A stretch of DNA of 63,988 nt. Origin: an uncultured cyanobacterium. Lineage in GTDB: Bacteria; Cyanobacteriota; Cyanobacteriia; PCC-6307; Cyanobiaceae. Below the pieces are notes generated by a model. The model had not been told where the DNA came from. It was given only the letters and a program-made list of their open reading frames with translations, and searched no databases. The DNA is taken from assembly GCA_963765575.1 (NCBI GenBank), contig CAVXWZ010000003.1, forward strand, positions 1 through 63,988. The letters run 5' to 3'. Positions 8,550 through 63,988 of this stretch are shown here, piece by piece. Both the position numbers and the translations under genes were made by a program. How positions within the stretch are numbered: the first letter of the stretch is position 1; each line of letters opens with the position of its first letter.

Positions 8550-8619
8550 CAGGCAGAGCCGAGCAGAGCGGTCGTTGGGACGGCGGTGGCATCCATCAGT
8601 GCCAACGCAACTCACCCCT

Positions 8620-9012
8620 TTGGCCACCCGCGCCGTTTACAGCTTCTGGGGCTTTGCCGCAAGGCCGCCCTGCCACCTCTATCTGCACCACGACGGCTAC
8701 CCCACCGGCGCCGCCTGGCGCTTCGCAGCCGCGCTGCGGGAAACAGCTGAGCCCCAAGACTTCCTCAGCAGCTTCCTCAGCACCCAGACCAGGGCCGAAC
8801 AGCTCACCAGCCCCCACCAGGCCGCCGATGCGGAGTACCGCTACCGGGTGCAACTGGTGAGCTCCCCAGAGGCCCAGGTTGCGGTGCAGTGGCAGCGACG
8901 GCTGCCTCGCTCCAGCCACTGGCAGCAGAGCTGGGGGCCGGTGCCCCTGCCGATCTTCATCCAGCGCTTCCTGCCCGGCGACACCCCGGCCTGCGCTCGG
9001 GCCGGGATGTGA
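8620..9012 (+). CDS. Hypothetical protein with YLHHDGYP motif
   Basis: ORF with (M)ATRA start, YxHxDGYP and AEYRY motifs. Confidence 0.5.
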   Translation: MATRAVYSFWGFAARPPCHLYLHHDGYPTGAAWRFAAALRETAEPQDFLSSFLSTQTRAEQLTSPHQAADAEYRYRVQLVSSPEAQVAVQWQRRLPRSSHWQQSWGPVPLPIFIQRFLPGDTPACARAGM

Positions 9013-48621: not shown

Positions 48622-48795
48622 ATGAGCCCCCTCTTCCCCTGCTCAGGTTGCGGCGTTCAGATCGAGCGCTCGGTGCGCCTCTATCTGCAGCTGAAAGGAC
48701 GGGTGCTCTGCTCCACCTGCAAGGACCGGCAAGACATGGAAGCCGCGTCTGCACCCCAGGGCGAGCCGGGGGATGCGGCAGCAGGCCCGGACTGA
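48622..48795 (+). CDS. Possible small zinc-ribbon protein
   Basis: CSGC..CSTC in a 57-aa ORF; overlaps the ogt 3' end convergently. Confidence 0.45.
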   Translation: MSPLFPCSGCGVQIERSVRLYLQLKGRVLCSTCKDRQDMEAASAPQGEPGDAAAGPD

Positions 48796-51719: not shown

Positions 51720-53870
51720 ATGCGCGAGCACCAGCACGCCCCTGGCGAGCAGACGTTCCGGATCGCCTCGATGGATTGCGCCACCGAGGAAAACGAGATC
51801 CGCCACGCCCTGCGCGGGCTGCCGCAGATTCGCTCCCTGCGCTTCCTGCTGGCGCAGCGGATTCTGGCCATCGATGCCGCCCCCGACGTGGTGGATCGGG
51901 CTGTGGCGGCAATTCGTGGCCTGGGCTTCGAGCCGGAGGCGATCAGCAGCGCCAGCAGCCCAGCGCCTGCACTGAGCCAACGCCAGGAACGCCGCCATCT
52001 GGTGCGGCTGGGGGCCTCGCTGCTGCTGGCGATTGCCGCGGAATTGGTCAATGGTTTCGCGCCTGAGGCCCTCGGCTACGAGCTGGTGGAGATGGGGCTG
52101 GCGATCGGTGCGATCGCACTGGTGGGCCTGTCGATCTACCGCAAGGGCCTCGCCGCCCTGCGTCAGGGCCGGCTGAACATCAACGCGCTGATGAGCGTGG
52201 CGGTCAGCGGTGCCTTCCTGATCGGGCACTGGCCGGAGGCGGCCATGGTCATGGCCCTCTATGCGCTGGCTGAAACCATCGAGGCCAAGGCGGTGCAGCG
52301 CGCCCGCCAGGCCATTGCCGGCCTGATGGCGATGGCGCCGGAGCTGGCCGAGGTGCGGCAGGGGGATGGCCAGTGGCTGCGCCTGCCCTGCGCCCAGGTC
52401 GCCGTGGGCGATGTGATTCGGATTCGCCCCGGCGAGCGCCTGCCGCTCGATGGGGCCGTGATCACAGGGGTGAGCAGCATCGACCAGGCGCCGGTCACCG
52501 GCGAGAGCCTGCCGGTGGAGAAGGGCCCCGGGGATGGGGTGTTTGCCGGCACCGTCAACCAGGGCGGAGCCCTGGAGATCCGGGTGAGCGCCCCGGCCTC
52601 GCAGAGCACCCTGGCGCGCATCATCCATGCCGTGGAGGAGGCCCAGGCCACGCGGGCGCCCACCCAGCGCTTCGTGGATCGCTTCGCCGCGCGCTACACG
52701 CCGGCGGTGTTTCTGCTGGCCTGCGCCGTGGCTGTGCTGGCGCCGTTCCTGCTGGGCGTTGCGCCCCTTGAGGCGATCTACAAGGCCTTGGTGCTGTTGG
52801 TGATCGCCTGTCCCTGCGCCCTGGTGATCGCCACGCCGGTGACGGTGGTGAGCGGTCTGGCAGCGGCGGCCCGCAGGGGCATCGTGATCAAGGGTGGGTT
52901 GTACCTGGAGCAGGCCAGACGCATTCAGGTGATGGCCCTCGACAAGACCGGCACGATCACCGCCGGCAAGCCGCAGCTCGTTGCCTTTGAACCCACCAGA
53001 ACTGAGGCCAATCCGGGGGCGTTGAAACGCCTCGCCACCAGCCTGGCCGAACGCTCCGATCACCCCGTGTCCAAGGCCATCGCCGCCGGACTGGATGGGG
53101 ATCGACTGGCTGTGGAGGCGTTCGAAGCGCTGCCGGGGCGGGGTGTGCGCGGCAGGATCGAGGGCCGCGCTCTGCAGCTGGCCAACCATCGCTGGATCGA
53201 GGAACTGGGGCTCTGCTCACCGCCCCTGGAGGCGGCGATGCTCCTCCATGAACAGCAGGGCCGCAGTGTCTCGCTCCTGGCCGACACGACCACGGTGCTG
53301 GCGATGGTCGCCGTGGCCGACACCGTCAAACCCTCATCCCGCCAGGCGATCGCGGCGCTGCGGGCCCTGGGCGTGCGGCCCGTGATGCTCACCGGCGATA
53401 ACGACGCCACCGCCCGCACCATCGCCGCCCAGGCCGGCATTGACGACGTGCGCAGCCTGTTGCTGCCCGACGACAAGCTCCAGGCCGTGGTGGAGCTGCA
53501 ACAGCGTTATGGCTTCACGGCCATGGCCGGCGACGGCATCAACGACGCGCCAGCCCTGGCCCGCAGTGACCTCGGCATGGCCATGGGCGCCGCCGGCAGC
53601 GACACGGCGATGGAAGTGGCCGATGTGGTGATCATGAACGACGATCTGATGCGGCTGCCGGAGACCATTGCCCTCTCGCGCCGCACGTTCACGGTGCTGT
53701 GGCAGAACATCGCCCTGGCCCTTGGCATCAAGGCCCTGTTTCTGCTGCTCACGGTGCTGGGCAGCACCACGATGTGGGAAGCGGTGTTTGCCGACATGGG
53801 CACAAGCCTGCTGGTGATCGCCAATGGCCTGCGGCTGATCAGAAGGACTCCAGGGCCGGCAGCGGCCTAA
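51720..53870 (+). CDS. Heavy-metal P1B-type ATPase (ZntA/CadA-like)
   Basis: MDCATEE N-domain, TGES, CPC, DKTGT, HP, GDGIND, ALGIK and FADMG. Confidence 0.95.
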   Translation: MREHQHAPGEQTFRIASMDCATEENEIRHALRGLPQIRSLRFLLAQRILAIDAAPDVVDRAVAAIRGLGFEPEAISSASSPAPALSQRQERRHLVRLGASLLLAIAAELVNGFAPEALGYELVEMGLAIGAIALVGLSIYRKGLAALRQGRLNINALMSVAVSGAFLIGHWPEAAMVMALYALAETIEAKAVQRARQAIAGLMAMAPELAEVRQGDGQWLRLPCAQVAVGDVIRIRPGERLPLDGAVITGVSSIDQAPVTGESLPVEKGPGDGVFAGTVNQGGALEIRVSAPASQSTLARIIHAVEEAQATRAPTQRFVDRFAARYTPAVFLLACAVAVLAPFLLGVAPLEAIYKALVLLVIACPCALVIATPVTVVSGLAAAARRGIVIKGGLYLEQARRIQVMALDKTGTITAGKPQLVAFEPTRTEANPGALKRLATSLAERSDHPVSKAIAAGLDGDRLAVEAFEALPGRGVRGRIEGRALQLANHRWIEELGLCSPPLEAAMLLHEQQGRSVSLLADTTTVLAMVAVADTVKPSSRQAIAALRALGVRPVMLTGDNDATARTIAAQAGIDDVRSLLLPDDKLQAVVELQQRYGFTAMAGDGINDAPALARSDLGMAMGAAGSDTAMEVADVVIMNDDLMRLPETIALSRRTFTVLWQNIALALGIKALFLLLTVLGSTTMWEAVFADMGTSLLVIANGLRLIRRTPGPAAA

Positions 53871-55357
53871 GCGATCGCGGTGTCACCACGGCGGTGAATT
53901 TCGCGGGCGTAGTCGGTCCAGACACCCTGACCCCAGTAGCGAAAGCAGCTGGTTTCCAGCAGCAGCAGGTGCAGCAGGGCCTCCTGGTAGCGGGCGGTTT
54001 GAGTGACAGCGGGATCGGCCGCCACCAGGGGATCAAACAGCTGGTGGAAACTGGCGCTGAGCTGGTTCATCGGCTCCAGCACATTGCCGTAGCCCTCCAC
54101 CCAGCTGAGGTTGTTGGTCCACGACGCTCCCTTCATCGAGAACTGGGGGTCGTTGGCCTGGAGCTCGGCGATGGCGGCTGCGGTGGCTTGCGGGGTGGGC
54201 GTCCTGATTTTGGATTGTCCACCAGACGATTGAACGCCGACTTTCTGCCACAACTTGTGCTGCTGAGTTGCCTGAATGTTTGGGTAGTTGGCTGGGTTCA
54301 GACCAGCGGCTTCCAGCAACTCCAGATATTCGCTGCCATTGATCGCCACCGTGACTGAGTCGCCACTTCGTTCGCTCCCCATGGCAGCAATCTTCTGATG
54401 GGCCTGGATGAAGGCGGAGGGGAATTCATTCATCATCACGCCGCCGTTTTCGCCATCGGCAATCTGAGACACGAGCGCCGGGATCGTGGTGTCTCCCAAC
54501 GCTTGCCGGCCCAGCCCCAGGGCTTCGTAGCAGGGCTGCATCTGACCCACCAGCTTGGTGTCCGAGCCCTGGGTTTTGATCAGGGCCGTGATCGACACCG
54601 TCTCGCCGCTGGAGTTGCGCGCCAGCAGCTGGTTGGGGATGTACCTCTGTTCCTGGCTGAGGCTGGAGCCATCGAGATTCTCCACGCTGTGCTCCTGCAC
54701 CAGCAGCCACCGGTAGCCGCACTCACGCAGGGCCTTCACCAGTTCATAGAGGGTGTCGGGGTGGTTGGGCAGGGCCATTTCCGGCGGCGAGAAGCCCTTC
54801 ACCCGTTGCAACGCCTCGGCGCCAAAGAGGGCGGCGAAATGCTGTTGCCAGGCCAGGATCTGCAGCTTGAGGTCGGGAATCGGCGTGGAGGGGGCCACGG
54901 CATGGCTCCAGAAGCTGCCCAGGAATTCCACATGGGGCTGCAGGGCGGGATCGCAGGCGAGCTTGTTGAGGGCCTCGAGGATGTCGACACGGCCCATCTG
55001 CTCAAATCCCCAGAGCAGATTGCCTGAGTAATCCAGCATGATCCGAGGATTGCAGCCCTCGGAGATCAGCTGGGGGATGATCTCGGCAAGGCGTTTGTAG
55101 CAGTGGGCAAAGGGTTCGGCGTTGTGGTTATCGCCCTCGCCGGGGTGCTCCAGCATGTACTGAAGATGGGAGATGAGTGCTCCATCGGCCCCGGCTGGAA
55201 TCGTGGGCTGGTGCATGTGCAGGGCGCAGGCAAAGCCGGAGCGGATCTGCGCCGGATTGAGATTGGTGCGCGGCAGAAACACCGGGCCGGCCTCTTGCAT
55301 CAGGGCGAGGATCTCGGCTTCGCGGCCGGCGATGGGCGGCAGGGTGGGGTTGGTCAT
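53867..55357 (-). CDS. Glycoside hydrolase family 57-like protein
   Basis: ALHMHQP, GFSPPEM, DGENGG. Confidence 0.85.
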   Translation of the reverse strand: MTNPTLPPIAGREAEILALMQEAGPVFLPRTNLNPAQIRSGFACALHMHQPTIPAGADGALISHLQYMLEHPGEGDNHNAEPFAHCYKRLAEIIPQLISEGCNPRIMLDYSGNLLWGFEQMGRVDILEALNKLACDPALQPHVEFLGSFWSHAVAPSTPIPDLKLQILAWQQHFAALFGAEALQRVKGFSPPEMALPNHPDTLYELVKALRECGYRWLLVQEHSVENLDGSSLSQEQRYIPNQLLARNSSGETVSITALIKTQGSDTKLVGQMQPCYEALGLGRQALGDTTIPALVSQIADGENGGVMMNEFPSAFIQAHQKIAAMGSERSGDSVTVAINGSEYLELLEAAGLNPANYPNIQATQQHKLWQKVGVQSSGGQSKIRTPTPQATAAAIAELQANDPQFSMKGASWTNNLSWVEGYGNVLEPMNQLSASFHQLFDPLVAADPAVTQTARYQEALLHLLLLETSCFRYWGQGVWTDYAREIHRRGDTAIA

Positions 55358-55678
55358 GGCGGTGGTGTGGCGCCCGCGCGCTGGGCAGGTCGTATGGGGT
55401 CAGTCTGGGGGTCAGGCTCAGCCCAGGGCCGCTTCTGGGCGGCCATCGGTCATGGCTGAGACGACTCCTGAACAGAAGGTGCACGCGATGGAGTGAGGAT
55501 TCCTGCAAGTGATGAGCCCTCCTTTCTCCTGTTCAGGCTGCAGCGTCCAGATCGAACGGTCGATGCGCCTCGATCGGTAGCAGAAAGGGACGGTGCTCTG
55601 GTCAACCTGCAAAGACAAACTGGAGGCGTATCAAGCTGCTTCACCGGGGACAACAGATCAAGCCCCATGTCCACGGCA

Positions 55679-55878
55679 TCACGCAAGCCCCAGCTCATCG
55701 ATCGAGCAGTCCAGCTGAGCGGCCACGTCTTTGAGGATCTGCCGCGTCATCGTCACAGGGCCAGCAGTTCCTGCCTCACGTGGAGGGTGCCGGCGTCGGT
55801 GTCGATCGCGGCAGCGGCTGCACTGGCCCGGAAGGAGCCAGCCTCCGCTTCCTTCACCACGAACAGGATGTCCTGCAT
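55679..55878 (-). pseudogene. Internally deleted HicB-like antitoxin (55753-55878) and HicA-like toxin (55679-55756) remnants
   Basis: MQDILFVVKEAE.G.F.A..LHVRQELLAL, then a GTGA-coupled 25-codon ORF ..RQILKDVAAQLDCSIDEL. Confidence 0.55.
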
Positions 55879-55940
55879 GGCGCCCGCCAGTGGCCTAAGT
55901 GTTGCAGTGGTGGGCGGGATGCTGCCCCTGGCTGTGCAAA

Positions 55941-56030
55941 CGGACTTGGGCGGCACACCAACACCCGCAGCCGGGTTGGCTGCAGCCGTCAGGCGATCAC
56001 GCCAGAGGGAAACCCAGCAGGGGCGATGGC
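55941..56030 (+). repeat. Spacer repeat family B, copy 1
   Basis: ACACCCGCAGCCGGGTTGGCTGCAGCCG..GCCAGAGGGAAACCCAGCAGGGGCGATGGC. Confidence 0.8.
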
Positions 56031-56414
56031 TCACACCACCAAGCCAAGGATCTGCCCCACAATCGCCAACACCTCCTCCAGCTGGGAGTGCTGCAGTCGC
56101 CCGACCGGATGCGGGCGAGCGCCCCTGGCGCGCCAGTCGAACGATTTGAGTTGCTGGCACAGCACGTAGCTGTGGGCACCCGGCCGATCGGGAATGGGAC
56201 CCAGATCCACGGCAAGGGTGGAACCACGGTTGTAGGGGGCTGAAGTCATCGCACAACCGACGACCAGGCCCACGGTGGAATGGAAGGAAGCGGTGGAGAG
56301 CACCACAAAAGGATGGTGATCCTTGATCTCGCGGCCGGCCTGGGGGTTGTGGTCGATCCAGATCACGTCGCCGCGATCGGGCACCCAGCCTTGGACGGCA
56401 TGGCGGGGACTCAC
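56031..56414 (-). CDS. mazF: MazF/PemK toxin
   Basis: PDRGDVIW.D..PQAGRE..HPFVVLS, SFDWRAR. Confidence 0.9.
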   Translation of the reverse strand: MSPRHAVQGWVPDRGDVIWIDHNPQAGREIKDHHPFVVLSTASFHSTVGLVVGCAMTSAPYNRGSTLAVDLGPIPDRPGAHSYVLCQQLKSFDWRARGARPHPVGRLQHSQLEEVLAIVGQILGLVV

Positions 56415-56671
56415 TCGATGACCTCAGCACCAACCGGACGGAAGGCCATGGCCTCGGTGGGTTCGCCAGCCATGGGCTCGTAGGCCGCCAGCCGTTCGGC
56501 CAGGGAAAGGCGAGGCTGCACCGGCCGGATCATCACGCCTCCGTCCACAACGGAGAGTTCCACGGCCTGATCCACCTGAAGCTGAGCCTCACGGGCAATG
56601 GAGGCGGGCAAGCGGATGCCGAGGCTGTTGCCCCAGCGGCGCAGGGCCTGGCGGGAAGGGGTGGCAGCCAT
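56411..56671 (-). CDS. mazE: MazE antitoxin
   Basis: RRWGNSLGIRLP. Confidence 0.9.
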   Translation of the reverse strand: MAATPSRQALRRWGNSLGIRLPASIAREAQLQVDQAVELSVVDGGVMIRPVQPRLSLAERLAAYEPMAGEPTEAMAFRPVGAEVIE

Positions 56672-56700
56672 GGGACTCAGGCGTATAAACGAGAAGGATA

Positions 56701-56811
56701 GACACCCCAGGCCGTAGCCGCAGCACGCCCACGCCAGAAGGGATTCCAGCAAGAGCGATGGCCTGACGGGCCGCCCAAAACCGACCCTGGCACAGGCGCC
56801 CTTCTGGATAG
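56701..56811 (+). repeat. Spacer repeat family B, copy 2
   Basis: CACGCCAGAAGGGATTCCAGCAAGAGCGATGGCCTGACGGGCCGCCCAAA. Confidence 0.8.
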
Positions 56812-56828
56812 GAGTCGCTGCTCTGCGC

Positions 56829-57059
56829 TCAAGCAGACGGCCGCTGCTCCAGCCGCGCCGCCAGCCACACCTTGATGATCGACTGACGGGTGACACCGAG
56901 ACGGCTGGCCTCACGATCGAGCTGGTCGATCATCCACACGGGGAAATCAACATTGACGCGTTTCTGCTCCAGCCGACGGCGGCGGGCACCGCCGAGGTCG
57001 AGGGCCTCGAGCACGGACTCGCCGTCATCGAAACGTTGATCGAAATCAGAACTGTTCAT
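56829..57059 (-). CDS. brnA: BrnA/CopG-like antitoxin
   Basis: FDQRFDDGE..KRVNVDFPVWM..LD.EA.RLGVTRQSIIK. Confidence 0.85.
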   Translation of the reverse strand: MNSSDFDQRFDDGESVLEALDLGGARRRRLEQKRVNVDFPVWMIDQLDREASRLGVTRQSIIKVWLAARLEQRPSA

Positions 57060-57309
57060 AGAGCTCCACCTCTTCTGGTCTGGACCGCCGAACGGAAATC
57101 AATCGGATGCACTGGTCGCGGTAGGTGATCACGGCCGACCAGTGCTTGAGGCCAATCCTGCCGATCACCAGAAATCTTGGCTCTCCGGTGGTGCGGGCCG
57201 GAAGCTCCAGGAGCTCCGAATCGTTCCAGAGCTGCTGGGCAGCAAGGAAGTCGATGCCGTGCTTGGCAAGGTTCGAGTCACTCTTGAGCGGATCGAACGC
57301 GAACTCCAT
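57046..57309 (-). CDS. brnT: BrnT toxin
   Basis: FDP.KS..N..KHGIDF, EPR, IRLISVRR. Confidence 0.9.
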   Translation of the reverse strand: MEFAFDPLKSDSNLAKHGIDFLAAQQLWNDSELLELPARTTGEPRFLVIGRIGLKHWSAVITYRDQCIRLISVRRSRPEEVELYEQF

Positions 57310-57472
57310 ACGGTGCTGATTCTATACCTTTTCGGCTCTCAGGGTCATTTCCGAATCAGAAAGCCCTCGTCCTCGGGACAGGCTGTTGGATCCTGGTTCT
57401 CTGCCTTCTGCCTGCCGTCCACCCTCACAAAGCCGGACCCTGCCCCACACCGCGTTTGAGAGCTCGGGTCGG

Positions 57473-57621
57473 GGACTAGGGCGAGCCACCCACACCCGGC
57501 GCCGGGTTGGCTGCAGCCGCATCACTGCCAAGCCAAAGGGGATCCCAGCAGGGTCGCCAACCTGACGGGCCGCCCAAAGCCAGACCTGGCCCGGTCGCCC
57601 GGCAGCCGCCAGCATCACTCC
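57473..57621 (+). repeat. Spacer repeat family B, copy 3 (leader of an HNH-HIT stub)
   Basis: ACACCCGGCGCCGGGTTGGCTGCAGCCG..AGGGATCCCAGCAGGG..CCTGACGGGCCGCCCAAA. Confidence 0.8.
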
Positions 57622-57989
57622 ATGGCCAACAGCCCCTCTGCCGCCTTCCTTCGCCTGCGGCAGACCATCGCCAAGCGCATGCGCATGAGCCACATCGATC
57701 AGCCCCTGATGCTGATGGAACTGCTCGGCCGCCGCAGCCCGGCCCCTGAGCAGGACGTGGCCCAGCGAATCCTGGGAAGCGCATGGTGGGCCGGGTTCAC
57801 CTTCAACGGCATCACCGCCGATGGCGATGGCCACGACAGCCTGATCGGTGGCGAAGAGTTGAGCGATGGCGGTACCTGGCCGAAGGCCAGCGTGGCGGAG
57901 CCACGACGCGACGAGCTGCTTGAGCTCTGCCGGGAACGTCTCGACGCATTCCGAGGCCATTGGCATGCTGCAGGCCCTGTTCTTCGGCC
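57622..57989 (+). pseudogene. Truncated copy of the HNH-HIT gene 5' part
   Basis: IAKRMRMSHIDQPLMLMELLGRRSPAP matches the gene at 61248. Confidence 0.85.
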
Positions 57990-58298
57990 TCATGGAGAAG
58001 GCCGAGTCGCCCCAAGGCGAGCGCGAATCCAGATCGGATCGCGTCGACAATCGAGGATGGCGTAGATGTCGATGCTCGTCGCCTCCATCACGTCGTAAAG
58101 CGCAAAGGGAAACCGCCTGATCAACATGCGATGAAACCCATCGACCTGAAGATGAATGCCGCCATAGACAGTCAATGATTGAACATCAGCTTCGACGGCA
58201 TCCAGAAAGCGATTGCCCAGCCCCGGTGCCTGAAGTTCGTAGAACAACCAACCGTTCCGGAGATCATCGGTGGCCGCATCAAGGAGCCTGATATCCAC
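57990..58298 (-). CDS. RelE/ParE-family toxin
   Basis: A..DL..G..FYE..GLG..F, RRFPF, ILDCRRDP. Confidence 0.85.
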   Translation of the reverse strand: MDIRLLDAATDDLRNGWLFYELQAPGLGNRFLDAVEADVQSLTVYGGIHLQVDGFHRMLIRRFPFALYDVMEATSIDIYAILDCRRDPIWIRARLGATRPSP

Positions 58299-58512
58299 GA
58301 AGCTCGGCCTTGAGGTCAGTCATGGCGTCGTTCCAAGACTGAAACCGGGCGGAACCCTGCTCCAGCTGGTTGCGGCGCCGCCGTAATTCATCGCGATGCC
58401 AATCAGGCGATACGATCTGATCGGGTGTGGTGGAGAGATCCGCCCATAGGACTTCCATCGCCTCAAGTTTGTCTTCCAGACTCATCTGGCCCAAGGGAAG
58501 ATTCGCCGCCAC
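58279..58512 (-). CDS. Addiction-module antitoxin
   Basis: MSLEDKL..ME.LWADL..SPDWH..EL.RR..W. Confidence 0.85.
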   Translation of the reverse strand: MAANLPLGQMSLEDKLEAMEVLWADLSTTPDQIVSPDWHRDELRRRRNQLEQGSARFQSWNDAMTDLKAELRGYQAP

Positions 58513-58613
58513 CAGCCGAGGCCTCCAAAGGGGCATGGCATGGATTTTAGAGCCAATGCAGTCAGCAAAACGAAGCAGGCCAGAAGTCCAGAGGGCTGTT
58601 GTCCTCCTGACAG

Positions 58614-58685
58614 GTGCCACCCCCGTCACACCGCAGCCAGGATGCCCCCATGCCCCCGCCCCCCTCCGCCACCTCCGAGGGCTTG
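58614..58685 (+). repeat. Spacer repeat family A, copy 1
   Basis: GTGCCACCCCCGTCACACCGCAGCCAGGATGCCCCCATG + short HNH-HIT stub. Confidence 0.9.
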
Positions 58686-58707
58686 AGAACCGGTGTCGAG
58701 TCCACGT

Positions 58708-58920
58708 TCAAGCCGGAACAACGATCTGCTGTAGACCGACGAAATCGCTCTCCAGGCTCGGCTCGGCGCCCTCCAGCAGCATGGCGATCACCTCCTGGAG
58801 ATTGGCCTGCAGCTCGTCGAGCGTCGCCCCCTGGCTGTGGGCGCCGGGGAAGCCAGGCACATGGCCCACAAGCAGACCTGTCTCGCTGCAGCGTTCGATC
58901 ACGGCGGAGTAGGTACGCAC
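58708..58920 (-). CDS. hicB: HicB antitoxin (cognate HicA reduced to a stub at about 58668-58704)
   Basis: VGHVPGFPGAHSQGATLDEL..NLQEVI. Confidence 0.85.
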   Translation of the reverse strand: MRTYSAVIERCSETGLLVGHVPGFPGAHSQGATLDELQANLQEVIAMLLEGAEPSLESDFVGLQQIVVPA

Positions 58921-59020
58921 GATCTGGCCGGCCTTCACTGGTTGCATCGTAGGTACCGCGGCTGGGCTTGCCGATTGGTGTGGGACGTCCATCGGAGGGT
59001 GATGCTCTTCTCGTCTACAA

Positions 59021-59270
59021 GTGCCACCCCCCGTCCCAGGCGGCCAGGATGCCCCCATGCCCTCGCACCCCTCCCCCACCTACGAGCGCCTGAGGCACAC
59101 CATCGCCAAGCAGATGCGCATGAGCCCCATCGACCAACCGCTGATGCTCATGGAACAGCTGGGCCGCCACAGCCCGGCCCCAGCGCAGGACGTGGCTCAC
59201 CGGCAACGGCATCGCGGCGATCATCAGCATCCTGCAGGCGCTCTGCTTCCGCTGCAATGCCGACAAGCCA
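59021..59270 (+). repeat. Spacer repeat family A, copy 2, with multiply deleted HNH-HIT stub
   Basis: GTGCCACCCCCCGTC..GCCAGGATGCCCCCATG, then MRMSPIDQPL.., TGNGI and LQALCFRCNA segments. Confidence 0.9.
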
Positions 59271-59338
59271 TGGCCATCGTTGGTCTCAGAGTTGCACCGG
59301 CAGGGATTGACTCAGATGGCTGGAATCTCATGCCACAC

Positions 59339-59689
59339 CTACACAGCTTCAGATTGGATCTCAAGCACGCGATTGATCAGATCAGTGTCTTTCCCGTGTT
59401 GGATCAGCTGCAGAGCTGATTGGACCCGGAGCCACTGCTGTTCCGCACTCAAGCCAGCCTCCCTGAGGGCGATCACCCCAGGGTGCACCTCCATGGTGGC
59501 GGCCAAGCGAATGAAATCGCCCACGTTCACCGTGACCACAATCTGATCGCGGGCCAGGGCATGGGCGAAGACCGCGTCATCCTTGGCGCCAGCAAGACCG
59601 ACATGCACAGCCGCCTCTGCCGGAATTTCCTGTTCACAGGCCCAGCGGGCCAGGCGCGGACTGAGATTTTCGTCGATCAACAGCCTCAA
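59339..59689 (-). CDS. DUF5615 PIN-like toxin
   Basis: LLIDENLS, GAKD, VT.N..DF, H.GVI. Confidence 0.85.
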   Translation of the reverse strand: MRLLIDENLSPRLARWACEQEIPAEAAVHVGLAGAKDDAVFAHALARDQIVVTVNVGDFIRLAATMEVHPGVIALREAGLSAEQQWLRVQSALQLIQHGKDTDLINRVLEIQSEAV

Positions 59690-59700
59690 GGCATGATCCT

Positions 59701-60333
59701 TCAGCCGCGTTGCAGGGCGAGGGGGCGCCGAGGGCGGCCGGGAGGCTTGGGCAAGCGTGCCTGGATCTGCGCGTAATCGAGGGCCTGCCGGCTGAGCTGG
59801 GGGAAATCCTCTTCCAGCGTGCTGCGGCTGACGCCGGAGCGAAGCTGCTCCACAACCACGGCCACGGGAATCCTTGTGCCCCGGAACACAGGCTGCCCAG
59901 AACAGACGGCCGGATCGCTCTCCACCAGGGAATGGGGCCGCCTGTAGAGCCGATAGCGGTAACGCAGGTCCCGGCTCACGCCGAGGAGGTCGAAACGGAA
60001 GGGAACGGCACCTGTCTTGCGCAGCTCACCGGGGCCACGGGACCAGCCCCCTTGGGCTACCTGTCGCCGGGGCAGGCCCTCAGGCAACCGGTGAGTCTTC
60101 ACGGTCAACACACGGAAAACCTCACGCTTCTGGTCAGGGGAGAGCTGCAGGCCCTCGGCGCTCAGACTGCTGACCACCTGGAAGTAGAGGAGCTCGCGAA
60201 AGCCAAGCCGCAACGGGCCTGCAGAGGAAGGCGATCCCGATGGAGCCAGCACGCGGCGGTATTCCTGAGCGAGCAGGCGGGCATCTGCTGCGAGCAGGGC
60301 GGCACCGACGGCGGGGGTGAGGTCAGAAGCCAT
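59701..60333 (-). CDS. DUF433 antitoxin with N-terminal extension
   Basis: DPAVCSGQPVFRGTRIPV..EDFPQL. Confidence 0.85.
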   Translation of the reverse strand: MASDLTPAVGAALLAADARLLAQEYRRVLAPSGSPSSAGPLRLGFRELLYFQVVSSLSAEGLQLSPDQKREVFRVLTVKTHRLPEGLPRRQVAQGGWSRGPGELRKTGAVPFRFDLLGVSRDLRYRYRLYRRPHSLVESDPAVCSGQPVFRGTRIPVAVVVEQLRSGVSRSTLEEDFPQLSRQALDYAQIQARLPKPPGRPRRPLALQRG

Positions 60334-60456
60334 CGCAAAACCATGGTTCAGCCTGAAGCAGAGTATAGACACTCAGGACTGGCGGGGGTGCTGGTGAGCA
60401 AAGGCCGGCCTGAGGGGGCCGGCATGCCCAACCGAAGAGGGGTCCTCAAGACATCA

Positions 60457-60505
60457 GTGCCACCCCCGTCACACCCGCCTGGATGCCCCCATGTCTGCCC
60501 CACCC
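60457..60505 (+). repeat. Spacer repeat family A, copy 3
   Basis: GTGCCACCCCCGTCACACCCGCCTGGATGCCCCCATG. Confidence 0.9.
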
Positions 60506-60913
60506 TCACGCCGTACCCCACAACCGGAACTCCACCTGCTGAGAGGCTGCCTGAAAGTCCTTGTCGGTTGTCAGCAGCGTCAGCTCGTAGCGCTGGCAGA
60601 GTTGAACAAGCAGGGCATCGATGGTGCCGATCTGGATCCCTCGGCGGCGGCAGACATTGCGGATTTCGGCTGCTGCAATGTGGTCCTGCTTGTCAGGCTG
60701 GAGGAAGGCGAGGGCGGAAAGGCGCTCCACGAGCTGCTCTCGGTTTTTGGGGCCGGAAAAACCCTGGAGGACCTCCTGGAGCACCAATCCCGTGGTGAAG
60801 ACCTGCTCGGCACCCTGGAGAGCGGCACGAAGGGCGACCACCTCAGGCACGCCTGGCTGGCCATCACGGCGAAAGGCCAGCGACCAGACCGAGGTGTCGA
60901 CCAGCAGGCTCAC
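60506..60913 (-). CDS. vapC: PIN-domain VapC toxin
   Basis: LVDTSVWS, QEVLQG, IDALL, LTTDKDF. Confidence 0.9.
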   Translation of the reverse strand: MSLLVDTSVWSLAFRRDGQPGVPEVVALRAALQGAEQVFTTGLVLQEVLQGFSGPKNREQLVERLSALAFLQPDKQDHIAAAEIRNVCRRRGIQIGTIDALLVQLCQRYELTLLTTDKDFQAASQQVEFRLWGTA

Positions 60914-61113
60914 CGCTGGCGTTCCCGTTCGGCCTTGACGTCGTAGCCGGGGTCCCACTCGAGCTTGCCGAAGAGCTCGGCAACCTGTCGCTGCTCCCGG
61001 CGCGCGATGAACTCCTGAAGGGCACGGGTCACGGCGGCCTTCTTTGTGGGCTCACCGCTCACACGGAAGGCGTGATCGAGCAGATCCTGATCGAGAGCGA
61101 GATTCGTGGCCAT
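60910..61113 (-). CDS. vapB: VapB RHH antitoxin
   Basis: MATNLALD..LL..A..TKKAAV..AL.EFI. Confidence 0.9.
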   Translation of the reverse strand: MATNLALDQDLLDHAFRVSGEPTKKAAVTRALQEFIARREQRQVAELFGKLEWDPGYDVKAERERQR

Positions 61114-61211
61114 GTGTGACCTCCTTGTGAGGTTCCTACACATTAGTTCCTTCGGGCTGGTTGAGGGGGCAAGCAAAGGCATGGCACCTGGCATGGGCTT
61201 CTCCTCCACCA

Positions 61212-61250
61212 GTGCCACCCCCGTCTCACCCCGGCCAGGATGCCCCCATG
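61212..61250 (+). repeat. Spacer repeat family A, copy 4 (leader of the long HNH-HIT gene)
   Basis: GTGCCACCCCCGTCTCACCCCGGCCAGGATGCCCCCATG. Confidence 0.9.
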
Positions 61251-62202
61251 CCCCGCACCCCCTCCGCCACCTACGAGCGCCTGCGCGACACCATCGCCAA
61301 GCACATGCGCATGAGCCCCATCGACCAACCGCTGATGCTCATGGAACTGCTGGGCCGCCGCAGCCCGGCCCCAGCGCAGGACGTGGCCCGGCGGATCCTG
61401 GGCAGCGGATGGTGGGCAAGGTGCTCACCGGCAACGGCATCACCCGCTGCGGCAACGGCGCCTACACCCTGATCGGCGGCGACGAGCTGAGCGACGCCGA
61501 GCGCGACGGCTGCAGCAGCTGTGCCGCCAGCGCCTCGATGCCTTCCGCGAGCAGCGCGGCGAGGAGGTGTTTGCCCACCGCAGCCGCCACCGCAGCCCGG
61601 GGCCGCTGCGAGTGCTGCGGCGCCCACGAGCACCAGCGGGCCCTGGAGGTGGACCACATCATCCCCAGAAACCAGGGCGGCTCCGACGCCATCAGCAACC
61701 TGCAGGCGCTCTGCTTCCGCTGCAACGCCGGCAAGCGCGACGGCTGTTTGCCTACGCAAGAGGGCGCACCGACTTCCGCGGTGTGCAGGCCAGCTACGGC
61801 CACCGCGAAGCGGGCTGTGTGTTCTGCGCGCTGGAGGGCAGCGGCCGGGTGCTGCTGGAGAACGAGCTGGCGCTCTGCATCGCCGATGCCTATCCGGTGA
61901 GCGAGGGGCACAGCCTGGTGATCCCGCGTCGTCATGGGGCCGACGGGCTGGAGCTGCACCAGCCGGAGTGGAACGCCGTGGTGGAGCTGCTGAAGCTGCG
62001 GCGGGAGCAGCTGCAGTGCCCAGGACGCTCGATCAGCGGCTGGGCTGGTTTGCTCAACGCAAGAGGGGGGCTGAACTCAGGCGAGGCGGCGGGGCAGACG
62101 GTGTTTCATGCGCACTGGCATCTGATTCCGAGGCGGGAGGGGGATTGTGAGCAGCCGAGGGGTGGGGTGCGGGGGGTGATCCCGTCGAGACGGGCCTACT
62201 GA
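61248..62202 (+). pseudogene. HNH endonuclease-HIT hydrolase fusion, frameshifted
   Basis: CECCG..LEVDHIIP..GGSD..NLQALCFRCNAGK; CVFC..YPVSEGHSLVIP..AGQTVFHAHWHLIPR; spread over several frames. Confidence 0.85.
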
Positions 62203-62252
62203 AGACAGCCAGCCCCACCTCGGCTACAAAGAGGCAACTACTGGCCGGATCC

Positions 62253-63194
62253 GTGCCCTCCTACTGGTGGGTGAACCACAAACAGACCTACCGGCAGGAG
62301 ACCGACGGCGGCTACATCTGGTCGCCGAAGGCCAATGCCAACGGCGCCCGCAACGTGACCTACGACAACCTCACCCGCTGCCAGCGGGGGGATGTGGTGT
62401 TCAGCTATGCCAATGGGCGGATCAGCCAGCTCGGCCTGGTGGAAACGGCGGCGGTCACGGCCCCCAAGCCGCCGGAGTTCGGCTCAGCGGGGGAGAACTG
62501 GAGCCAGGAGGGCTGGCTGGTGCGGGTGAACTGGCAGCCGCTGCGCCAGGCGCTGGTGCCGCAGACGTTCTTTGCGCTGCTGCAACCGCTGCTGCCGGAG
62601 CGCCACAGCCCGATCAGCACCAGCACAGGCCGGGGCAACCAGGGGGTGTACCTGGCCGGGCTGAGCGAAACCCTTGGACCGCTGTTGCTCCAGCTGATCG
62701 AGGAGCACGCCGATCCGGCGGTGCGGGTGCACCTGGTGGTGCTGGCGGAAGAGGGGGAGTACACCGCCGCACTGCTCGATGACATGCAGCGGTTGCGGGA
62801 GGTGCCCAGCAGCACCGAGCGCGATGCGCTCACCAAGGCGCGACTGGGGCAGGGGTTGTTTCGCCATCGGGTGTCGGAGCTGGAGCCGGCCTGCCGGGTC
62901 ACGGGACTGGCGCGGCAGGAGTTCCTGGTGGCCAGCCACATCAAGCCCTGGCGCGATTGCGACAACAGCGAACGGCTGAGCGGATCCAATGGCCTGCTGC
63001 TCTCCCCCCATTTGGACAAGCTGTTTGATCGCCACTGGATCAGCTTCGACTCAGGCGGCGAGCTGGTCTGGCAGCACGAGGCGGCAGGAGAGGCCTTGCG
63101 CTGCTGGGGAATCGAGGGGGCGAACCTGATTCGGCCGTTCAGCCGGGAGCAGGAGAAGTTTCTGAGTGCCCATCGGGAAGGACTGCGACGTTAA
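62253..63194 (+). CDS. EVE/PUA-HNH modification-dependent restriction endonuclease (VcaM4I-like)
   Basis: N-domain YWWVNHKQT..GYIWSP..GD.VFSY..NW..GW..NQG.YL; C-domain ARLGQGLFR, ASHIKPW, NGLLL..DKLFD. Confidence 0.75.
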   Translation: MPSYWWVNHKQTYRQETDGGYIWSPKANANGARNVTYDNLTRCQRGDVVFSYANGRISQLGLVETAAVTAPKPPEFGSAGENWSQEGWLVRVNWQPLRQALVPQTFFALLQPLLPERHSPISTSTGRGNQGVYLAGLSETLGPLLLQLIEEHADPAVRVHLVVLAEEGEYTAALLDDMQRLREVPSSTERDALTKARLGQGLFRHRVSELEPACRVTGLARQEFLVASHIKPWRDCDNSERLSGSNGLLLSPHLDKLFDRHWISFDSGGELVWQHEAAGEALRCWGIEGANLIRPFSREQEKFLSAHREGLRR

Positions 63195-63372
63195 GCGCGT
63201 GGCTGATTAGGTGTGATTGCCAAGGGGCCAATTCAATGATCTCAATTTCACTTAGCTCTAGCAGTTGTTAATGTACATCGCCCACTCCACCTGCCTTGGT
63301 TGAGCCCCAAGAGCATGTTCGTACTGTTGACTGTTGCCATGGCCAAGATTACCTAATCACCGGACAGATGAA

Positions 63373-63948
63373 ATGAAGCCATTCAGAACACTCATCGTTA
63401 TCAGCCTGGCCGTGATCGCGGCCAACTGGGTGCGTGTTTCAACCACGCCTGGCGATCCGGCTACGATTGTCTCCATCACTGATGGTGACACCGTAAGGCT
63501 AAGAAATCAACAAGGTAAAGATATTCGAGTGCGCTTGGCCTGCATCGACGCACCTGAATCCGGAGCGAAGCATGGGAGCACAGCCACCCAGCGTTTGGCA
63601 CAGTTAACACCCGAGGGGTCCATGATTCGATACCAAGACTTGGGAAGCGGGGGATTCGGCAGACGTGCTGGGGAACTTTTTACAGGGACTTGGCCTCTGT
63701 ATTCATCCGCCAACCGCACTCTCGTTCTCGAAGGTAAGGCGGTGGTGTATCCGCAATATGTGAGCAAGTGCGACAGGGTGGCCTTCTGGTGGGACGAGAA
63801 GTGGGCACGCCTCTGGCGACGCGGGGTTCACTCAGACCCACATTTTTGTCCACCATGGCTGGATCGCAGAGGGGCATGCCCTAGTGAAGGCCGATGGGCC
63901 TTCACCTCTTGGATGGAAGCATTGTTGATGAATCCATGGGCCAAGTGA
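63373..63948 (+). CDS. Thermonuclease (SNase-like), secreted or membrane-anchored
   Basis: DGDT, VRLACIDAPE, FGR, N..LV.EG.A. Confidence 0.85.
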   Translation: MKPFRTLIVISLAVIAANWVRVSTTPGDPATIVSITDGDTVRLRNQQGKDIRVRLACIDAPESGAKHGSTATQRLAQLTPEGSMIRYQDLGSGGFGRRAGELFTGTWPLYSSANRTLVLEGKAVVYPQYVSKCDRVAFWWDEKWARLWRRGVHSDPHFCPPWLDRRGACPSEGRWAFTSWMEALLMNPWAK

Positions 63949-63988
63949 TCCCAACTACGGAGGCATGATCAGGCTTGGAGTTCCCCTG

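Follow-up and report, generated by a model that had tools for sequence, protein, structure and literature searches.

The window analyzed here is the whole of one contig (CAVXWZ010000003.1, contig C3 in what follows; 63,988 nts) of an uncultured cyanobacterium of the family Cyanobiaceae, whose genome (assembly GCA_963765575.1, G000) comprises 2.7 Mb in 11 contigs. At positions 55679-62202 of the window lies an array of toxin-antitoxin (TA) cassettes punctuated by partial copies of a single gene, that of a nuclease with HNH and HIT domains (HNH-HIT). The array is real and widespread, and arrays in relatives draw on a common pool of cassettes without any fixed order. We favor, with some reserve, the explanation that the repeats are homology arms, and that cassettes are exchanged through them by ordinary homologous recombination.

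The array and its repeats

Seven TA-type modules, all on the minus strand, alternate with seven plus-strand repeat copies between 55.7 and 62.2 kb. Each repeat copy is a leader, of family A or family B, and in some copies part of the HNH-HIT gene comes after it. The features are, in order:

55679..55878, minus strand: HicAB-type remnant (internally deleted HicB-like gene and a scrap of hicA); no Pfam match
55942..56030, plus strand: repeat copy, leader B only; stops at the mazF stop codon (distance 1 nt)
56031..56671, minus strand: MazE-MazF module, whole; PF04014, PF02452
56701..56805, plus strand: repeat copy, leader B without its start; the next gene is an antitoxin, not a toxin
56829..57309, minus strand: BrnT and CopG/BrnA-like antitoxin, whole; PF04365, and PF12441 under the cut-off
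57473..57959, plus strand: repeat copy, leader B and HNH-HIT nts 1-347, interrupted by a deletion and a short insert
57990..58545, minus strand: addiction-module antitoxin and ParE/RelE-like toxin, whole; PF09720, toxin groups with ParE-positive homologues
58614..58682, plus strand: repeat copy, leader A and ~30 nts of the gene, joined within hicA
58683..58950, minus strand: HicB-like antitoxin, whole, and hicA stub; PF15919 just under the cut-off, toxin 19% covered
59021..59268, plus strand: repeat copy, leader A and HNH-HIT nts 1-142 and 524-571
59339..60372, minus strand: DUF433/DUF5615 module, whole (the upper coordinate is the first possible start of the open reading frame, ORF)
60457..60507, plus strand: repeat copy, leader A only
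60506..61113, minus strand: VapB-VapC (PIN) module, whole; PF09957, PF01850
61212..62202, plus strand: leader A and terminal HNH-HIT gene, full length, frameshifted; HNH and HIT in separate ORFs
62253..63194, plus strand: HNH_2 nuclease gene; PF13391

The initial annotation, made from the sequence letters alone, had located both repeat families correctly; the boundaries of three copies are approximate (~56701/56710, ~58682, and ~60507). It had also named seven TA modules. All seven are there on the minus strand, but only five are whole pairs (MazEF, BrnT with its CopG/BrnA-like partner, the addiction antitoxin with a ParE-like toxin, VapBC, and DUF433/DUF5615, which we take to be a TA pair), and both HicAB modules have lost most of hicA. 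That the copies keep their left end holds for most of them, not for the one at 56701, which lacks the start of leader B. That they often end at the stop codon of the next toxin is true to ~1 nt at mazF; elsewhere the distance from the repeat end to the stop of the next gene, which uses profile boundaries good to roughly ±20 nts, is 24, 31, -172 (within hicA), 71, and 10 nts, and the gene following 56805 is an antitoxin.

Pfam matches in the array comprise MazF, MazE, BrnT, addiction-module antitoxin, DUF5615, DUF433, PIN, VapB, HNH, HIT, and HNH_2. The CopG/BrnA-like and HicB matches are under the Pfam cut-offs, and the ParE-like ORF and the leftmost HicB remnant, which have no Pfam match in the window, are named after homologues. 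That remnant (55679..55878) has an 81% DNA match to a leader-B cassette on contig C1 of the same genome, in a cassette cluster (cluster 4) whose intact member has HicA (PF07927). For the copy at 58614..58682, comparison with an intact hicA places the junction where hicA and the HNH-HIT gene share a short match. The copy at 59021..59268 has a near-identical counterpart in another locus (L116), where it stands behind another cassette.

Arrays in relatives

The same genome has a second array, on C1 at 405-413 kb, with the layout GH57 gene, array, HNH-HIT remnant, HNH_2 gene. Its cargo (Gp49-HTH, TacA-GNAT, Fic, HicB-like, ParE, and MNT-HEPN) differs from that of the window. The repeats are not dispersed over the genome, because profiles of both leaders match strongly in just these two arrays, with the best match elsewhere at E 0.003. 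Beyond the HNH_2 gene, at L001 5900-7100 (G000:C1 ~404-405 kb), there are remains of BrnT/BrnA, a leader A that has degenerated, and a PIN toxin, so that the C1 array seems to continue past that gene.

Among 301 genomes of the family, 100 match the leader plus the 5′ part of the gene at E-values up to 0.001, 23 of these only above 1e-10. We mapped 67 loci (the window, L001, and further loci with a match to the gene, 13 duplicates having been removed); they were picked by best match, so that the frequencies given here are not unbiased. Three or more closely spaced copies occur in 48 of the 67, with a maximum of 19 copies in 20 kb. Arrays are found under six genus labels (g1, g39, g52, g55, g57, and g64), loci found through the HNH_2 neighbor are mostly from Synechococcus and Cyanobium, and more arrays are seen in metagenome contigs. 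A single copy without an array is found in five genomes (G193, G278, G273, G223, and G080).

Could strain variants have been joined into a chimeric array during assembly? The genome consists of 11 contigs, the array is 2 kb from a contig end, and none of the assembled contigs compared with it spans all of it. But the repeat copies are just 75-91% alike, arrays are present in seven single-contig genomes (G077, G093, G106, G118, G143, G146, and G235), and contigs from other metagenomes bridge 57900-59053 and 56422-57340, that is, two internal repeats. We give a chimera next to no credence. The DUF433 cassette is also found in contigs from other metagenomes, where 2 or 3 differences are seen over more than 1200 bases. 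Joints in the contig mapping that appear to go back or to skip were considered as circles and rejected; repeat cross-mapping explains them.

A shared pool of cassettes in random order

Cassettes were annotated one by one; single-linkage protein clustering merged families. The 284 spacers fall into 74 clusters, 24 of them with four or more members, and TA-type Pfam families appear in representatives of 23 of these 24. Three clusters (16, 18, and 22) are on the plus strand, and clusters 2, 12, and 23 lump multi-module spacers. The commonest cassette (cluster 0) is a DUF6883/DUF4926 pair (e.g., L114 9574-10239), which is nearly always intact and is the most frequent neighbor of the terminal gene (6/31). 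We infer a TA role for this pair, a candidate uncharacterized TA or defense module.

Cassette order across loci is random, and the loci share a pool of ~24 common cassettes. Among cassette pairs seen at least twice, 84 of 131 occur in both orders. The order concordance is 0.512, against 0.508 ± 0.027 in 500 shuffles. Of the cassette adjacencies, 122/145 are distinct, and a duplicated cassette is found in one locus only. The TA set is thus not invariant among relatives, and the view of the array as a modular, integron-like TA platform, which the initial annotation had put forward, gains support from this variation in content and order.

These results bear on the possibility that a single long array existed in an ancestor, was passed down vertically, and lost cassettes through deletions between repeats. 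The limited cassette pool and the conserved flanks (a dCTP deaminase-like gene in 25/67 loci, GH57 in 21/67) would suit it. But order is not conserved, and cassettes 99% identical are found in loci where their neighbors differ. The order test refutes such an array unless heavy reshuffling followed, which amounts to the exchange that we propose, and we consider inheritance with thinning very improbable.

Junctions and points of exchange

The junction counts cover 239 cassette occurrences in 35 clusters, four non-cassette clusters being excluded. Each cassette lineage has a fixed junction and a fixed leader, and the exchange points are scattered within the repeats. The leader on the right-hand (promoter) side is of the majority type for its cassette in 192/216 cases, in agreement with the earlier claim that each TA operon is tied to the leader on its promoter side, while the left-hand leader is so in 124/216. 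The left junction is common to another locus in 143/239 occurrences. When pairs sharing a left junction are compared, the cassette to the left differs in 136/145, and the leader type in 80/145. Because leader and left junction are tied to the cassette, each repeat is a hybrid that takes its start from the left cassette and its end from the right one. And because junctions and right-hand leaders stay with their cassettes behind different neighbors, exchange takes place inside the repeats.

As an example, the DUF433 cassette of the window is 99.6% identical to one in L116, with different neighbors on both sides. The identity covers the whole of the left fragment and stops near the start codon of the right leader. 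In other recent pairs the changeover is near nt 1, 118, or 350-420 of the gene. In 33 pairs of at least 97% identity, the right-hand limit of identity lies before the leader in some and, in others, 7-12, 26-33, 50-75, 113, 256, or 385 nts into the repeat.

Alternatively, the array could have grown by serial addition at the terminal gene, each time with one homologous anchor and a new illegitimate junction, as proposed for the orphan immunity arrays of Vibrio cholerae. This is close to what the initial annotation had suggested. Repeat length increases toward the terminal gene (rho -0.26, p 0.0006). By rank, the cassettes near that gene also resemble their relatives slightly more closely (rho -0.16). 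Each common cassette comes with 2-10 junction variants, and 96/239 occurrences have a junction that is not shared. Yet the same junctions recur behind different cassettes and different leaders in the proportions given above, the mean identity is not highest beside the gene, and toxin decay has no polarity along the array (rho -0.10, p 0.32). A fresh illegitimate junction as the routine of each addition is not supported, the junctions being inherited. Growth at the gene-proximal end alone keeps weak support from the repeat lengths and is not borne out by toxin decay. As a general account, serial addition seems to us rather unlikely; it may explain how junctions are first born.

Proposed exchange by homologous recombination

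Under homologous exchange, the mobile unit would consist of the right part of a repeat, a fixed junction, the TA operon and its promoter region, a leader that is likewise fixed, and the left part of the next repeat. A repeat-TA-repeat fragment would have two homology arms to the same sequence, and it could insert into any single repeat, or replace the cassette between two repeats. Neighboring repeats could recombine with each other and so eject a cassette, a loss that addiction would counteract. New junctions would arise only rarely, when a deletion, illegitimate or at microhomology, shortens the repeat as far as the cassette's last gene or cuts into a toxin. The platform would be the DNA of the HNH-HIT gene, with no need for the protein in cis. 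The incoming DNA would probably arrive by natural transformation; comEC and dprA are present in the genome. That no attC site or adjacent recombinase is found at the array counts in favor of this mechanism. So do the random cassette order, the inherited junctions, the scattered tract ends, the bias of decay toward toxins, and the low share of intact HNH-HIT copies in arrays.

Several points weigh against it. Most of the recent tract ends fall in the first 70 nts of the repeat, and over all pairs, the linkage to the left cassette reaches background ~10-15 nts from the start of leader A, an abrupt loss that would also fit a site. Some of the exchanged repeats consist of ~40-55 nts of leader A only, and that is short for efficient homologous recombination; to be set against this shortness, the junction of cluster 13 occurs behind five different known left neighbors. 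Duplicates, expected from unequal sister exchange, are rare. Many pairs in the counts are not independent, and the choice of loci by best match applies here too.

Recombinases and integrons

The array had been described as free of integrases. This is correct for the array itself, where neither an integrase nor attC is found, but not for the genome, whose sole strong tyrosine recombinase is an integron integrase on contig C2 (TIGR02249, 464 bits, cut-off 265). The three PF00589 matches in the genome are all away from the arrays, a weak tyrosine recombinase match is on C8, and serine resolvase (PF00239) has no match in the genome. The 80 long ORFs of the rest of C3 include no integrase, and no tRNA was found in the window or in 15 loci. 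With intI on C2 and the arrays on C3 and C1, intI/attI is not adjacent to the array.

Two scans report no attC at the repeats of the window and the 67 loci, the stricter one missing some attC visible by eye; the same two scans do detect the canonical attC of the genome's own integron. The leaders fold no better than shuffles (z from -1.4 to +0.9, vs. -3.8 and -4.0 for true attC). There is no single fixed crossover point, tract ends being scattered.

That integron is complete, at G000:C2 324.9-328.3 kb (L155 12870-16330), with an intact intI followed by same-direction cassettes that include MazEF, and canonical attC. Lone attC sites are at C2 556.8 kb and at C11 394.5, 395.1, and 664.8 kb, and a short scrap of intI follows a glutamine-synthetase-like gene at G000:C1 347.6 kb (L154). 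Across the family, intI is over the cut-off in 75/301 genomes, and some genomes with arrays (e.g., G039) have weak intI matches only. In 3/67 loci, pieces of intI are within the fetched stretch, on the far 3′ side.

At 7 of 87 gene ends an attC begins 5-9 nts past the HNH-HIT stop codon, and inspection by eye suggests a few more; integron cassettes thus abut the end of the TA array. Loci with attC just past the stop include L034 11233, L128, L132 13058, L188, L194, L206, L212, and L232. These attC sites differ, are on the opposite strand, and often share the same few linking bases. Integrons abut some arrays, and IntI may have a role; the array is still not an attC cluster that has no integron integrase (CALIN).

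A recombinase acting in trans, either the integron integrase at non-standard sites or the weak C8 tyrosine recombinase, could act on a short leader site; the imperfect inverted repeat with which leader A begins would be one candidate. Conservation rises sharply where leader A starts, linkage is lost abruptly there, and exchange occurs through very short repeats. The genome's intI is intact and intI is common in the family, and both the attC beside HNH-HIT stops and the 3′ intI pieces point in the same direction. However, two unrelated leaders and leaderless junctions mix freely, tract ends extend to 385 nts, and neither an attC pattern nor a hairpin is seen in the repeats. The inverted repeat has a spacer of variable length, the genome's own integron uses ordinary attC, and the weak intI of genomes such as G039 also speaks against it. 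We judge a trans-acting recombinase unlikely.

A more far-reaching proposal is that HNH-HIT genes are a recurring cross-domain platform for arrays of defense cassettes, in which a leader site or a nuclease in trans triggers exchange, making it a second integron-like system. Such an active platform would have its own recombination signal and end-to-end joining with true integrons at the HNH-HIT stop codon. We hold this proposal as a whole to be unlikely.

Toxin decay

Decay was scored in 150 cassettes of 16 clusters; cluster 0, whose roles are unknown, was excluded. The toxin is broken or absent in 38/150 cassettes and the antitoxin in 3/150, and a whole toxin with a doubtful antitoxin is found in 2/150 only. 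Junctions lie at a median of ~20 nts from the stop of the last gene, and the five that cut more than 40 nts into a gene are all in toxins. The pattern would fit working addiction modules together with repeats trimmed by deletion.

The HNH-HIT gene, its leaders, and its flanks

The gene that ends the array in the window is of full length but broken: it aligns in three frames to an intact homologue and, going by its sequence, is a pseudogene. Near-full copies are intact in 6/32 cases within arrays, vs. 6/9 in loci with one or two copies. Because so few are intact within arrays, the HNH-HIT protein seems dispensable in cis. Hairpin-like inserts of 20-30 nts break HNH-HIT copies (window ~61741, 62041, and 57870-57905; also L001), and the same inserts, together with the same SHIY-to-SPID change, are found again in 20-36 loci. 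We rejected the idea that these inserts are dispersed mobile elements; the genome has five of the patterns once each and one never.

In leader A, hexamers are 16-19 nts apart in 70 of the 81 copies parsed (of 162), and we would guess that it is the promoter of HNH-HIT. A scan for sigma-70 promoters and terminators stayed at chance level. Leader A as N-terminal coding sequence was rejected, as it is out of frame in two intact genes, judged by eye. Leader B directly follows a complete HNH-HIT stop codon, with no cassette in between, at 7/87 gene ends (loci include L040 5090, L120, L123 14531, L135, L137, and L218), which looks like an empty site, or like a clue to the origin of leader B.

The HNH-HIT family is large, with 3663 proteins at E-values up to 1e-40. 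Eighteen distant loci, many with little upstream DNA, have no gene stubs. In two distant AT-rich loci, 75-90 nts upstream of the HNH-HIT gene recur 1.7-2.4 kb downstream (L247, 4164-4238 and 6010-6084; L263, 5317-5406 and 7816-7905). PADLOC gives HNH-HIT weak domain matches only, three records of a plasmid collection match in the HIT domain only, and a phylum sample of 251 genomes, few of them family members, has single-domain matches only outside the genome studied here.

The HNH_2 gene is the commonest downstream neighbor, present after 34/87 HNH-HIT 3′ ends. The dCTP deaminase-like gene, of a kind known to act against phages, is on the left flank of arrays (e.g., L001 16047-16571), and is absent from the flank in the window. 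The rest of C3 carries metabolic, transport, and restriction genes. At the contig start, 1058-8549 holds an AAA_21/DUF4276 gene together with a type I restriction gene, hsdR, that is divided between two ORFs, and 8613-8981 is similar to DNA beside the C1 array. A 105-nt repeat, 80% identical (55512-55616 vs. 48622-48726), joins the left edge of the array to a site 7 kb upstream. An Rfam scan of 53000-63988 gave no matches at E-values up to 1.

Comparison with known systems

What emerges is a library of about two dozen TA cassettes that is shuffled across the population and kept without integron sites, in at least six genera of one cyanobacterial family. The literature searched holds no description of this arrangement, and the initial annotation had likewise known of none. 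In sequence, the modules conform to type II TA systems, having adjacent toxin and antitoxin genes of predicted known families. We also presume a resemblance to pdif modules, in which 28-bp dif-like sites for XerC/D flank the modules. Tandem integrative islands at a tRNA att site have a tRNA or tmRNA target and an island-borne integrase, neither of which is found here.

Sedentary chromosomal integrons and CALINs are similar in having small cassettes, variable order, and many TA modules, and TA modules can stabilize an integron array by addiction (bioRxiv 10.1101/2024.07.02.601686), as far as the portion of that source available goes. Unlike them, our arrays have no attC between cassettes, no adjacent intI/attI, and no single crossover point, and their spacers are direct repeats of 40-1000 nts derived from a gene. 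Tools based on attC would overlook such arrays.

Estuarine and freshwater Synechococcus and Cyanobium are known to be rich in TA genes, with TA pairs in genomic islands (PMC5498466; review PMC12413379). In the parts accessible, these studies treat the same organisms and TA families, counting TA pairs and measuring expression; the words "repeat," "HNH," and "integron" do not occur in the accessible text of the first, nor "integron," "hotspot," and "clustered" in that of the review. For these TA-rich picocyanobacteria, the arrays give a concrete account of how TA genes are gained and vary, and they constitute a ready list of candidate anti-phage TA modules.

Orphan cassette arrays are found in the V. 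cholerae effector-immunity loci (PMC8189183) and the Neisseria mafB-CT cassettes (PMC4287609). As the available parts of these papers present them, such type VI secretion system (T6SS) and polymorphic-toxin arrays also have a complete anchor gene, truncated stubs homologous to it, and toxin-related cargo that varies; they form through recombination that is homologous or helped by homology, and no dedicated recombinase is involved. Their cargo consists of alternative toxin tips or immunity genes of the anchor system itself. In contrast, the cargo here consists of complete type II TA operons that are self-contained, have no relation to the anchor, and for the most part run antisense to it. The anchor is a pseudogene in most cases; the stubs are upstream, junctions are reused, and order is random. 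The arrays also suggest a general route by which a dead gene can, through its duplicated front end, come to serve as a platform for insertion.

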